Positions 38,583 to 54,206 of a DNA stretch of 64,000 bases are shown here, piece after piece (position 1 is the stretch's first letter; every line of letters starts with the position of its first letter). The notes below the pieces were generated by a model. That model was not told the origin of the DNA and ran no database searches. It worked only from the letters and a program-made list of their open reading frames with translations. Location: the NCBI RefSeq assembly GCF_041886205.1, contig NZ_CP169030.1. One strand, 5' to 3'. The position numbers and the translations under genes are program-made. The DNA comes from Escherichia coli (GTDB lineage Bacteria > Pseudomonadota > Gammaproteobacteria > Enterobacterales > Enterobacteriaceae).

Positions 38583-39272
38583 TTAACGCGTATTTATGAT
38601 ACACATAGCCTTCTCGTATAAATAATAAATAAACTTTTTATTGTAGAGTAAGATAATTAACTCATCTTTATTAGAAACAGAGAAGTAGTCGCATATCAGA
38701 GATGCGTGTTTCTTTGATGTGGAGATGGATATATTTAATATTCTTGCTATAGCATTATGACTGATTCCGGTGCTATATAAGTAAAAGACATCATTTACAT
38801 ATGATGATACAGAAGAATCATCACTCATTCTTCTGATTATATTTCTGATATCATCACTGACAATCGTTTTTTGATTATAACTGTCTTTATGACGAACATG
38901 AGCAGCATCATAAAATTGCCACAGAATAATATTTCTGTGTCCATTAAGAAATGACTGGACAGATATTGTCCAGAATCTATTCTGAATAAAAACATCCTCT
39001 ACAAGATTAAGATGCGTATGCTCATTCCTATATGCTTCCATCTCTGTGACAGAGATCAATTCACAAAAATCTCTCTGCGACAGAAGCCATTTTTCAGCAC
39101 TTTGATCTTGTGTAAGAAATGACTCATGAAACAGCGTATTGCAAAAAATAAATTTTCCAGTTTCGTCCCTGATACAGGCTGGATTTGGATAATCCTGAAT
39201 AACTGCCGTCAGATTTTCCAGCAGATCTATTTGACGAGCATGTTTTTGTTGAATACGATCCATCGGATACAT
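38583..39272 (-). CDS. traJ: TraJ transfer activator
   Basis: 229 aa from MYPMDRIQQKHARQ; low-GC as in F. Confidence 0.93.
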   Translation of the reverse strand: MYPMDRIQQKHARQIDLLENLTAVIQDYPNPACIRDETGKFIFCNTLFHESFLTQDQSAEKWLLSQRDFCELISVTEMEAYRNEHTHLNLVEDVFIQNRFWTISVQSFLNGHRNIILWQFYDAAHVRHKDSYNQKTIVSDDIRNIIRRMSDDSSVSSYVNDVFYLYSTGISHNAIARILNISISTSKKHASLICDYFSVSNKDELIILLYNKKFIYYLYEKAMCIINTR

Positions 39273-39340
39273 AGGAACCTCCTCACAAAGGATTCTATGG
39301 ACAGTCGATGCAGGGAGTTCACGTCTCCCTGCATCGGCGA
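39262..39340 (+). ncRNA. finP: FinP antisense RNA (ends approximate)
   Basis: Antisense to traJ RBS; stem-loop GATGCAGGGAG…CTCCCTGCATC followed by GGCGATTTT. Confidence 0.6.
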
Positions 39341-39458
39341 TTTTCAATTTCAAATTTTAACGTGGCATTAACCACGTAATTAATATACTAATTATCTTTC
39401 GTACTGTCACCTTTTTAAATCATAAAAACTCTGATATTTGAACGAAGTCAAATTTCGT

Positions 39459-39842
39459 TTATTCATCATCATTTTTTGGAAAAAATCGTTCCATCTCAGA
39501 TGATACCTTCTCCCTGATATCTTCAACCATATTGGCATATTCAAACTTTGGATTTCCGGAGACATGAGGACTGAGAGACTCAATACCCAAAATTTTCGCT
39601 ACTGATGATTGTGTTTTTACAACGCATTCAAGAAGCAATTTATTAAACTCAGTCTGATTAAATGCAGACTCTTTACGCTCCATCTGAGCCTCATGTACAC
39701 GAAGCCCCAGTTCAAGAAGCATTGAAGCTGTTGCTGAAAAACTGACATCTTTTTCCCTTGCCCCTTCCTGTCGACGCTTCTCAATAATCGCATTTATTTT
39801 TTCATAGGCATCATTGCTGATATACAGGTTCACCTTAGCCAT
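39459..39842 (-). CDS. traM: TraM relaxosome accessory protein
   Basis: 127 aa, F TraM sequence. Confidence 0.95.
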   Translation of the reverse strand: MAKVNLYISNDAYEKINAIIEKRRQEGAREKDVSFSATASMLLELGLRVHEAQMERKESAFNQTEFNKLLLECVVKTQSSVAKILGIESLSPHVSGNPKFEYANMVEDIREKVSSEMERFFPKNDDE

Positions 39843-39849
39843 TAGAGAT

Positions 39850-40250
39850 TACCTTTTTTGAACATAAAATAAAGTTAATTTCGAAACACTAAAATTCATA
39901 ATGCAAACAGGGACGCACCGCTAGCAGCGCCCCTAGCGGTATCCTATAAAAAAACACACCGCGCCGCTAGCAGCACCCCTAATATAAAATAATGTTTTTT
40001 ATAAAAATAGTCAGTACCACCCCTACAAAACGGTGTCGGCGCGTTGTTGTAGCCGCGCCGACACCGCTTTTTTAAATATCATAAAGAGAGTAAGAGAAAC
40101 TAATTTTTCATAACACTCTATTTATAAAGAAAAATCAGCAAAAACTTGTTTTTGCGTGGGGTGTGGTGCTTTTGGTGGTGAGAACCATCAACCTGTTGAG
40201 CCTTTTTGTGGAGTGGGTTAAATTATTTCCTGATGACGTCACCAGAGGTG
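39850..40250. other. oriT: oriT, with F-type nic motif TTTGCGTGGGGTGT|GGTGCTTTTGGTGGTGAG (nic about 40164/40165) and TraM/IHF/TraY binding-region repeats
   Basis: Nic-site consensus of F; imperfect repeats GCACCGCTAGCAGCGCCCC at about 39915-39980; perfect 12-bp IR at 40036-40069. Confidence 0.85.
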
Positions 40251-40255
40251 AGAAA

Positions 40256-40765
40256 ATGAGAAAATGGCTTCTAACGATCTGCCTGATGTTTATAAATGTG
40301 ACCTGCAAGGCTGGTGATTGCTTTGATCTTGCAGGTCGGGATTACAAAATAGACCCTGACTTGCTGAGAGCGATATCATGGAAAGAATCCCGTTACCGGG
40401 TTAATGCCATTGGTATTAATCCGGTAACGGGATATGGCAGCGGATTGATGCAGGTAGACTCCCAGCATTTTAACGAACTGGCCCGCTACGGCATTAAACC
40501 GGAACATCTGACAACAGATCCCTGCATGAACATTTATACCGGTGCTTATTATCTGGCTATAGCCTTTAAAAAATGGGGCGTCTCCTGGGAGGCCGTTGGT
40601 GCATACAACGCAGGATTCAGGAAAACCGAACGCCAGAACCAGCGGCGTCTTGCCTATGCATCAGATGTTTACCGGATTTACAGCGGGATAAAAAACAGTA
40701 AGGGGATCCAGCTTCGTGCATCTGAAAAACCGCTTTCAAAAATGAACAGCTCGCAGAAGAATTAA
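40256..40765 (+). CDS. Orf169 / gene X lytic transglycosylase (P19/IagB family)
   Basis: 169 aa, signal peptide, SLT catalytic motif …AISWKESRY…. Confidence 0.9.
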
Positions 40766-41022
40766 TTTGATATACATTTTAAAAAACCGGTTATGCCGCA
40801 AACGCGGCATGGAAGGCCACACACAAAAATATCATATGAGTGATAATGCTGACTGGCCGAAGCCCCGCAAAGCGGGAACCCATCTTATATATATCCGGTA
40901 ACTGCGCAGCCTCCTGCCAGACCATTTTTCGCGGGCACAATATTTACAGACTACCGAAAAGCCAGTTGATGAAATTGAGGCATCTCAGACGACATATCAA
41001 TGCCGCATAATGATAATATAAG

Positions 41023-41050
41023 TAAAGCCCCGAAAATTTTTCGGGGCTTT
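41023..41050. terminator. Bidirectional rho-independent terminator AAAGCCCCGAAAATTTTTCGGGGCTTT
   Basis: Perfect hairpin flanked by A-run and T-run between convergent genes. Confidence 0.7.
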
Positions 41051-41060
41051 ACTTATATTA

Positions 41061-41882
41061 TCATGACTTCCACTCCCTGAACTGTTCGGCAATCATCCAT
41101 AATGCTTTGTTGATTCGGATATCACCATCAATACCCGTAATGGCTCTTGTCCTGGTATTTTTACCGGAGGCACTTCGCCCCGACAGTCCACCTTTTATCA
41201 TATTCTCCTGAACCCGCTGCCAGGTTGTCCAGAGATCGTTCTGTTTATCCTCCCAACGACGGGGAGTAATTATTTGTTCAGGCGTCACTGGTGTTTTATT
41301 TTCATCTTCATACCTGACCATCAATGCAGCTCTGCCAAATAAATGTTGCTCGTCACTGTTAAGATGTATTTCTTTCATCGCCTCCATATTATCAGTAACC
41401 TTATCAAAGACACCGAGCACTTCATACGCACCCTCGATAACCTGCCCGACAATATCACCTTTATGTGGAACGCGGATTTCGCCAAAATTATTTCCGCACA
41501 CCAGACCATTTGTGCAGACAAAACGAAAAATTCCGGGGATCATCTGATAACTGGATGAACCATCATGTGAATTAAGCAGGATAATTTCAGGAACTTCTTT
41601 CCCGTTAATATTCCCTTCCCTGCGAAGACGTAACATATGTTTACTGTATTCGCGGCGTCCCAAATCGCGAACCCGACTCTGACAGGCAAAGAACGGCTGG
41701 AAACCTTCATCACGTAACTTATTGATGATATTAATGGTTGGAATATATGTATAACGCTCACTCCGGGATTCATGTTTATCACCGGAAAAGACAGACGGCA
41801 CAAACTGCATTAATTCATCATCCGTTAAAGGACGCTCACGGCGAATGGAATTATACCGACCAAAACGGGAAGCTAATCGCAT
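41061..41882 (-). CDS. Orf273, conserved leading-region protein (DUF932-like), function unknown
   Basis: 273 aa, matches the recalled size and position of F orf273. Confidence 0.75.
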   Translation of the reverse strand: MRLASRFGRYNSIRRERPLTDDELMQFVPSVFSGDKHESRSERYTYIPTINIINKLRDEGFQPFFACQSRVRDLGRREYSKHMLRLRREGNINGKEVPEIILLNSHDGSSSYQMIPGIFRFVCTNGLVCGNNFGEIRVPHKGDIVGQVIEGAYEVLGVFDKVTDNMEAMKEIHLNSDEQHLFGRAALMVRYEDENKTPVTPEQIITPRRWEDKQNDLWTTWQRVQENMIKGGLSGRSASGKNTRTRAITGIDGDIRINKALWMIAEQFREWKS

Positions 41883-44814: not shown

Positions 44815-45420
44815 CTCTGGTTTTCAGCCCCCATCATCTTTTGAGTTTCGGGAGCCGCGGTTTTGACGTTTTGCGGGGACCTGCCTTTTGTTCCCTCCGG
44901 TATTAACCATCACCTTTTTGAGAACCTTCGCCGCAAGGGGCATCACTGCCACGGCCTGACGCACCTGTCCTGGGCAGAACGCAAAATTTTTTACCGGGTT
45001 CTGGGTAAAAAATTTTGTGGGCTGTTCATTTACCCTGGACAGTCAGTGCGGCAGGTTGTGGCTGTATCAGCCCCCGGCGACAGGGGCTTAAACAGGTGTA
45101 TGGCACCGGACACAACAACGGGCAGGGACCCGCCGCAACGACGTGAAGCGCGGTTTGCGAAACGGCGTTGCCCCTTACATCCCGGCGGCCTTTTGCCGGG
45201 ATGCCGGGAGCGCAGGCCACGGCGCGACAGAGGCGGCGCGACCGGAACGGTCGCTGCAAGCCCGGGGTTTCGCGTCAGGGATGGAAGCCCGCCAGGGCGG
45301 AGACAGCTCCGCTGGCTCCGTTCACGACAGCCCGCCCCGCCAGGGGGACGCCCGGAAAAGGCATAAGCAGGAGAACAACAAAACAGACAATAATCAGGGC
45401 AGCAGTAATCAGAGTCAGAA
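44815..45420 (-). repeat. Leading-region structured repeat copy B
   Basis: Direct copy of repeats A/C/D. Confidence 0.6.
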
Positions 45421-50204: not shown

Positions 50205-50930
50205 GATGTTTTCAGCCCCCATCATCTGTTGAGTTTCGGGAGCCGCGGTTTTGACGTTTTGCGGGAACCTGCTGCTGTATTCCCTGTGGTATGAACTTCA
50301 CCCGTTTGAGAACCTTCGCCGCAAGGGGCATCACTGCCACGGCCTGACGCCCCTGTCCTGGGCAGAACGCAAAATTTTTTACCGGGTTCTGGGTAAAAAA
50401 TTTTGTGGGCTGTTCATTTACCCTGGACAGTCAGTGCGGCAGGTTGTGGCTGTATCAGCCCCCGGCGACAGGGGCTTAAACAGGTGAATGGCACCGGACA
50501 CAACAACGGGCAGGGACCCGCCGCAACGACGTGAAGCGCGGTTTGCGAAACGGCGTTGCGCCTCACATCCCGGCGGCCTTTTGCCGGGATGCCAGGAGCG
50601 CAGGCCACGGCGCGACAGAGGCGGCGCGACCGGAACGGTCGCTGCAAGCCAGGGTTTCGCGTCAGGGATGGAAGCCCGCCAGGGCGGAGACAGCTTCGCT
50701 GGCTCCGTTCACGACAGCCCGCCCCGCCAGGGGGACGCCCGGAAAAGGCATAAGCAGGAGAACAACAAAACAGACAGTAATCAGAGCAGCAGAAAAAAGA
50801 AGAACAGGAGCAGTAGCAGGAACAACATCATCAGTAACAGACAAATGACAGGTCTGAAAAGACAGAAGCCCACAGCAGAATGTCCACGTAATGTAAGGGG
50901 CGGCGCGTCAGCGCGGCCCCTTTCACGCCA
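50205..50930 (-). repeat. Leading-region structured repeat copy C (immediately upstream of ssb)
   Basis: Direct copy; abuts ssb RBS. Confidence 0.6.
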
Positions 50931-53479: not shown

Positions 53480-54010
53480 CCCGTTGAGTTTCGGGAGCCG
53501 CGGTTTTGACGTTTCGCGGGAACCTGCTGCTGTATTCCCTGTGGTATGAACTTCACCCGTTTGAGAACCTTCGCCGCAAGGGGCATCACTGCCACGGCCT
53601 GACGCACCTGTCCTGGGCAGAACGCAAAATTTTTTACCGGGTTTTGGGTAAAAAATTTTGTGGGCTGTTCATTTACCCTGGACAGTCAGTGCGGCAGGTT
53701 GTGGCTGTATCAGCCCCCGGCGACAGGGACTCATACGGGTGTGTGGCACCCGGCAGGCAATGAGCAGGGACCCGCTGCAACGACGTGAAGCGCGGTTTGC
53801 GAAACGGCGTTGCTCCTTACATCCCGGCGGCCTTTTGCCGGGATGCCAGGAGCGCAGGCCACGGCGCGACAAGGGCGGCGCGACCGTTCCGGTCGCTGCA
53901 AGCCGGGGGTTTTGCGTCAGGGATGAAAGCCCGCCAGGGCGGAGACAGCTCCGCTGGCTCCGTTCACGACAGCCCGCCCCGCCAGGGGGACGCCCGGGAA
54001 AGCCATAAAC
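53480..54010 (-). repeat. Leading-region structured repeat copy D
   Basis: Direct copy (left end diverged). Confidence 0.6.
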
Positions 54011-54206
54011 AGGAGAGGAACGGAAAGAAGAGGAAGAAGAACAGTAACCACAGAAACATAACATCAGGAAAAAACATTCCGGACACATCACAAACGGGAA
54101 GGGAAGCGGGCGACGCGCCAGCGTGGCCCGCTTCCCTTCCGGCAGGCGCCAGCCTGCCAGGGGTTTTCGCGCGGGCTGACAGGCGGCCTCCACCGCCTGC
54201 CCTGTA

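Follow-up and report, generated by a model that had tools for sequence, protein, structure and literature searches.

The GC-rich inverted repeat at 40031-40066 of the window (the whole 64,000-nucleotide stretch of Escherichia coli DNA that was analyzed) is very probably sbmC, the nic-proximal TraM site of an F-type oriT, and would serve there as a palindromic site in ordinary duplex DNA. This assignment, which is made with high confidence, rests on sequence identity to plasmid F together with published footprints and structures. The element itself is already known, being the well-studied sbmC of the F oriT. Its position, its identity to F, its motif, its cognate traM and the comparative pattern among relatives were determined here; what is stated of footprints by TraM, of the structure and of the need for the site in transfer comes from the literature. 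Comparison with the maps of the F oriT, which the sequence-only reading had proposed as a check, places the repeat at the position of sbmC, a TraM-binding site.

Sequence and Geometry of the Inverted Repeat

The repeat was originally described as a perfect 12-bp inverted repeat, GGTGTCGGCGCG-N10-CGCGCCGACACC, and is found in that form at 40032-40043 and 40054-40065. The perfect arms are in fact one base longer, giving 13 bp each: CGGTGTCGGCGCG at 40031-40043 forms the left, traM-proximal arm and CGCGCCGACACCG at 40054-40066 the right, nic-proximal arm. Between them lies a 10-nt spacer, TTGTTGTAGC, at 40044-40053. The symmetry continues outward into an extended palindrome (40027-40043 and 40054-40070) with 17-bp arms and 94% complementarity, in which there is a single mismatch (A40030 versus C40067). 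The T-run that had been reported after the repeat is also present; C40067 is followed by T6 at 40068-40073, and the first three T of this run form the outer end of the extended palindrome.

The repeat is not a chance feature. In Markov-1 simulations with loops of 3-20 nt, the chance expectation per 64 kb was 0.01 perfect 13-bp repeats and 0.05 perfect 12-bp repeats. When folds were compared with dinucleotide shuffles, z-scores of -5.3 for RNA of the + strand, -5.2 for RNA of the - strand and -6.4 for DNA of the + strand were obtained. A simple terminator scan did not include the repeat in its list, only because that scan admits loops of 3-8 nt.

Several other repeats are found in the window. 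In the leading region, a repeat of about 200 bp occurs in three copies (about 44880-45120, 50268-50508, and 53523-53763) with a mean column identity of 96% in a three-way alignment, and each copy has a perfect inverted repeat of 13 bp, CAAAATTTTTTAC / GTAAAAAATTTTG, at its center. These three elements are presumably Frpo/ssi-type single-strand promoter elements of F. The window-wide count also returned a perfect inverted repeat with arms of at least 13 bp (GGAAGGGAAGCGG...) at 54097-54140. The coding sequence of orf169 contains an inverted repeat at 40387-40433 that is 23 nt long and 91% complementary, with a gap of 1 nt. Lastly, a perfect inverted repeat at 41015-41059, with arms of at least 21 bp and a 3-nt loop, starts 2 bp past the stop of orf273 (41061-41882, - strand). 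This hairpin is probably the orf273 terminator and would halt leftward transcription well before oriT.

Position of the Repeat Within oriT

The window carries an F-type plasmid whose 420-bp oriT/intergenic segment is 98.3% identical to that of plasmid F. The stretch from 39985 to 40175, which includes the repeat, is base-for-base identical to F (NC_002483, 100%). There is no difference from F within sbmC, and the window departs from F at only a few bases in the remainder of the 420-bp segment. The identity to sbmC of F (Di Laurenzio et al., 1992; Fekete and Frost, 2002; Williams et al., 2025, PMC12117103) covers the repeat and its flanks. Moreover, the site has the same position as in F, between TraY/IHF-A and IHF-B/sbmB, and is accompanied by the same cognate traM allele.

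As in F, the repeat is flanked by traM and orf169. The traM gene (39459-39842, - strand, 127 aa) is of the F allele and encodes the cognate binding protein, with residues 1-60 identical to the F traM product. On the other side, orf169 (40257-40765, + strand) encodes an SLT-domain lytic transglycosylase. Transcription of both genes leads away from the repeat. The + strand carries the nic sequence, GTGGGGTGT^GG, which is nicked between 40164 and 40165; it is therefore the strand that is transferred, and the leading region is to the right. In nic coordinates (+1 = 40164) the whole repeat spans +99 to +134, the left arm taking up +134 to +122 and the right arm +111 to +99. Its near edge is 98 bp and its center about 116 bp from nic, in agreement with the distance of about 100 bp given by the sequence-only reading. 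The repeat thus falls within oriT in the interval from nic to traM, with the IHF-A and TraY sites on its nic side.

The proteins of the F relaxosome have been placed in the same coordinates, with IHF at +23 to +60, three TraY at +61 to +90, and TraM on double-stranded DNA at +93 to +117 (PMC12117103). After conversion, the TraY train and IHF site A occupy 40075-40142 of the window. The TraM contact region converts to 40072-40048, which spans the whole nic-proximal arm together with the T-run and one half of the spacer.

Toward traM, the high-affinity TraM sites that precede the gene, sbmA and sbmB, are assigned to 39914-39981 from their motifs and the published description. This region contains 22-nt direct repeats 46 bp apart, as well as the hexamers ACCGCT (39917) and AGCGGT (39935). 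Between the sbmB region and sbmC there is an AT-rich block (39985-40012) which is nearly invariant across all alleles and which, judged by position alone, is probably IHF site B. A 13-nt direct repeat is also found in three copies, AGCAGCGCCCCTA at 39923-39935, AGCAGCACCCCTA at 39969-39981 and AGTACCACCCCTA at 40013-40025, spaced by 46 and 44 bp. The two earlier copies fall in the sbmA and sbmB regions. The third copy lies 5 bp to the left of the sbmC palindrome and, unlike the palindrome, is conserved in all TraM alleles compared; it may belong to sbmC or to IHF site B, or may be a point at which the spreading of TraM is nucleated.

A separate inverted repeat, GCAAAAACTTGTTTTTGC, is located beside nic at 40139-40156 and is part of the relaxase (TraI) recognition region. 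The role of a relaxase-recognition hairpin was considered for the repeat studied here and rejected, as it belongs to this nic-proximal repeat. Relaxase-recognition repeats (40139-40156 for F, and IR2 of R388) are likewise inverted repeats inside an oriT; however, they are found about 10-25 nt from nic, whereas sbmC, at a distance of about 100 nt, is the binding site of an accessory protein.

Recognition of sbmC by TraM

The motif recognized by F TraM is A(G/C)CG(G/C)T, and of the three TraM sites sbmC is the most important for conjugation (PMC3159463). In the window, ACCGCT at 40063-40068 is an exact F TraM hexamer, and its inverted partner is AACGGT at 40029-40034, with a 5/6 match. Both hexamers are positioned at the outer ends of the arms. 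Only three exact hexamers are present in 39850-40170, and the other two are in the sbmA region. Most relatives have AGCGGT where the window has AACGGT; the resulting G at 40030 makes the 17-bp repeat perfect, and this is also the commonest conjugative form.

Published data on TraM binding agree with this location. As reported in the citing paper, hydroxyl-radical footprints of TraM center on ACAACA amid inverted repeats (PMC9282650, citing Fekete and Frost, 2002). The spacer TTGTTGTAGC contains TGTTGT, so that its reverse complement contains ACAACA and matches the published footprint center. The cryo-EM study of the F relaxosome used a duplex from -27 to +143, which holds "the full sbmC site", and TraM was docked into low-resolution density, with F sbmC modeled as an extended duplex (Williams et al., 2025; PMC12117103). 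The text of its supplement gives no exact TraM boundary base pairs other than +93 to +117. The two contact descriptions differ somewhat, with the footprints centered on the spacer and the cryo-EM docking taking in the nic-proximal arm, half the spacer and the T-run. Removal of all TraM sites lowers transfer about 10,000-fold (PMC12117103). In addition, the crystal structure of pED208 TraM with sbmA has ribbon-helix-helix dimers on duplex DNA (PMC3159463). The sequence-only reading had suggested a cruciform binding site for relaxosome proteins. The protein site is borne out, as sbmC bound by TraM; the cruciform is not, since the published TraM complexes contain duplex DNA.

The sbmA site of F and pED208 (PMC3159463) has the protein, the hexamer type and the inverted symmetry on duplex DNA in common with sbmC. 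It has the highest affinity, overlaps the traM promoter and functions in autoregulation, and its four contiguous hexamers are bound by two tetramers. Conversely, sbmC has the lowest affinity, carries outer hexamers spaced by 34 bp about a palindrome rich in GC, and is used for transfer rather than repression.

From these features a mode of action can be proposed. The N-terminal ribbon-helix-helix dimers of a TraM tetramer would read A(G/C)CG(G/C)T hexamers that are set symmetrically on both arms, and binding at sbmC would be aided by cooperative loading from the stronger sbmA and sbmB before traM. TraM bound at sbmC would adjoin the TraY train and IHF on its nic side. The C-terminal tetramerization domain of TraM would contact TraI and the coupling protein TraD, leaving the relaxosome docked at the mating pore. 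Symmetry in the DNA would in this way mirror that of the protein, with no need for a hairpin.

Variation of the Site Across TraM Alleles

At the exact position of sbmC, plasmids with R100/R1-, pSLT- or CI5-type TraM carry a sequence that is unrelated to it. Their sites are again made of repeated, partly inverted motifs, either TAGGGTCG three times with CGACCCTA, or ATAGCGGTGC...GCACCGCTAT. The sbmC equivalents of R1/R100, pSLT and other F-like plasmids thus share the position and the nic distance and have allele-specific motifs; unlike sbmC, they are without a long perfect palindrome and without T6 after it. The AT-rich flank block and the nic region stay conserved across TraM alleles. As judged by these sequence comparisons, the TraM protein and its site change together.

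Metagenome contigs were scanned with a left anchor, AGTCAGTACCACCCCTA, and 120 anchor matches were long enough to read. In eleven of the 120, nothing oriT-like followed the anchor, and these were excluded; the other 109 continue as an F-type oriT and contain 28 distinct sbmC variants. Nearly all 109 copies have 145 bp between the left anchor and the nic region, and a few depart from this distance by 1-2 bp. Because this distance is fixed despite heavy substitution in between, indels there appear to be strongly selected against. Such a fixed distance fits what is expected of a protein scaffold with fixed phasing.

The palindrome itself is less constant. In ETEC1729-type sites (18 contigs, two commonest forms), which occur with an identical 47-residue TraM N-terminus, the longest perfect stem is 4 bp. 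RHB43-type sites have partly symmetric changes. The T-run also varies: F-type origins have TTTTTT, GCTTT or GTTTT, and R100-type origins have TATTTAAT. When covariation was examined in 22 distinct variants, 86% of cells pair and 2 of 17 pairs have changed on both sides; these values are not clearly above the shuffle control for the same 22 variants, as 30-53 of 500 shuffles reach them. A hairpin therefore appears not to be required, since ETEC1729-type sites keep the TraM N-terminus yet lose the palindrome and covariation is near the shuffle level. The comparative pattern fits a symmetric protein-binding site and not selection for a hairpin.

Spacer Inversion in Small Mobilizable Plasmids

In small plasmids that have an F-type oriT without traM, the center of the palindrome is found in both orientations. 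The isomers AAAAGCGGTGT-CGGCGCGGTGTTGTAGCTGCGCCA-ACACCGCTTTT and AAAAGCGGTGT-TGGCGCAGCTACAACACCGCGCCG-ACACCGCTTTT have a central 24 nt that are exact reverse complements of each other, with nothing else different. In a second pair of isomers, which has perfect 16-bp arms, the 12-nt spacer is exactly reverse-complemented. Among finished plasmid records at 99% identity or more, 62 have the F-like orientation and 188 the flipped one. Records 100% identical to the flipped form include NC_005018, a 4196-bp plasmid of Klebsiella pneumoniae which we take to be pKPN2.

pSe-Kan carries an oriT(F) identical to that of pKPN2, and pKPN2 is efficiently mobilized by F'; moreover, the spacer has been described as the stretch in which pSe-Kan and F are least conserved (PMC9282650). 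The F spacer matches the flipped small-plasmid spacer at 2 of 12 positions directly and at 10 of 12 when one of them is flipped. The apparent divergence of pSe-Kan from F at the spacer therefore arises because the spacer is flipped. With the flipped form present in pKPN2 and F' mobilizing that plasmid efficiently, these data suggest that spacer orientation does not matter. Such indifference fits what is expected of a symmetric site, and the flips say nothing in favor of a hairpin function. They do mean that the arms interact at some low rate in nature, and they show that short inverted repeats in oriT recombine or template-switch there. It is unlikely that the palindrome is more than a passive duplex site whose arms pair within one strand in vivo, either in the T-strand or during replication, and so cause the flips, with a possible role as a fold-back signal near the T-strand 3' end or as a weak two-way transcriptional insulator of nic. 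The flip is the only new observation made here and is a minor addition.

Alternative Explanations

A GC-rich stem and a T-run on the + strand are features that the repeat shares with Rho-independent terminators, and it had been proposed from the sequence that a terminator insulates oriT from orf169/traM transcription. That proposal is unsupported, as both genes are transcribed away from the repeat and the hairpin and T-run are not conserved among sites with the same TraM. A terminator in place of the TraM site, or besides it, is very unlikely and would mostly be a possible side effect. On the + strand, the 13-bp GC-rich hairpin and U6 would stop rightward transcripts before nic and orf169, and the predicted RNA hairpin of -27.6 kcal/mol (z -5.3) has a 13-bp stem and a 10-nt loop followed by C and U6. 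On the - strand, leftward transcripts would be weakly stopped before traM; there the predicted hairpin of -33.4 kcal/mol is followed by UUUUGUAGG, in which the U-run is only UUUUGU. A weak + strand promoter-like match at 39843-39870 (9/12) might give a short transcript ending at the repeat, but promoter-like matches are not above chance (6 found versus 3.6 +/- 2.0 expected). Since traM and orf169 both diverge from the repeat, there is no known transcript for a terminator to stop. FinP, the nearest RNA transcribed rightward, has a strong terminator of its own at 39304-39338, and leftward transcription from orf273, the nearest gene in that direction, would first meet the long perfect hairpin at 41015-41059. 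Furthermore, the hairpin is lost in ETEC1729-type relatives and the T-run is altered in others, half of T6 belongs to the palindrome, and T 40068-40072 are within the reported TraM contact region. The repeat also differs from Rho-independent terminators in its 10-nt loop, in having no co-directional upstream unit, and in a hairpin and T-run that are not conserved in relatives. A literature search returned no report of a terminator in the F oriT.

Known RNA families were considered as well. In an Rfam scan of 39000-41200 (E<=1), FinP antisense RNA (+ strand, 97 bits) and the traJ 5' UTR (- strand, 125 bits), both at 39266-39377, were the only matches above threshold; both are expected in an F-type transfer region. 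There was no real match at the repeat, and a known RNA family at this position was rejected.

Two further explanations would have the palindrome act as a folded structure in DNA. In one, the repeat extrudes as a cruciform in the supercoiled plasmid and relaxosome proteins read the four-way structure rather than the linear duplex. The perfect 13-bp arms, the AT-rich flanks, the stable single-strand DNA hairpin (-20.4 kcal/mol, z -6.4) and the spacer inversions in relatives, which show that the arms interact at least occasionally, are consistent with extrusion. However, a 10-nt spacer, as is present here, makes cruciform extrusion costly. In many contigs the palindrome is broken although the TraM N-terminus is the same, and the sites of other TraM alleles consist partly of direct repeats, which are unable to form a cruciform. 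TraM is moreover on duplex DNA both in the cryo-EM docking (PMC12117103) and in the pED208 TraM-sbmA crystal (PMC3159463), and recognition of a cruciform is extremely improbable. In the other, the hairpin would act in the single-stranded T-strand as a signal that folds back to bring about complementary-strand priming or the termination of transfer. The repeat is located 99-134 nt from the 3' end of the + (transferred) strand, the last part to enter the recipient, and its DNA hairpin is stable; the spacer flips are compatible with a single-stranded DNA hairpin and template switching, a link we infer. This role is highly improbable nonetheless: it has no direct support, and it is the repeat beside nic at 40139-40156 that forms part of the TraI recognition region. 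In addition, many conjugative relatives that appear intact have a degenerate palindrome, and covariation is not clearly above the shuffle control. The reading of the repeat as sbmC, a duplex site for TraM, is preferred over each of these.

Significance

The sbmC site is a textbook component of the F relaxosome, which has been footprinted, mutated, and now included in a cryo-EM model. Its appearance in the window provides a calibration point for genome scans, as a terminator-like GC-rich palindrome followed by a T-run may be the binding site of a symmetric protein. Gene orientation and comparison across protein alleles separate a terminator from such a protein site.
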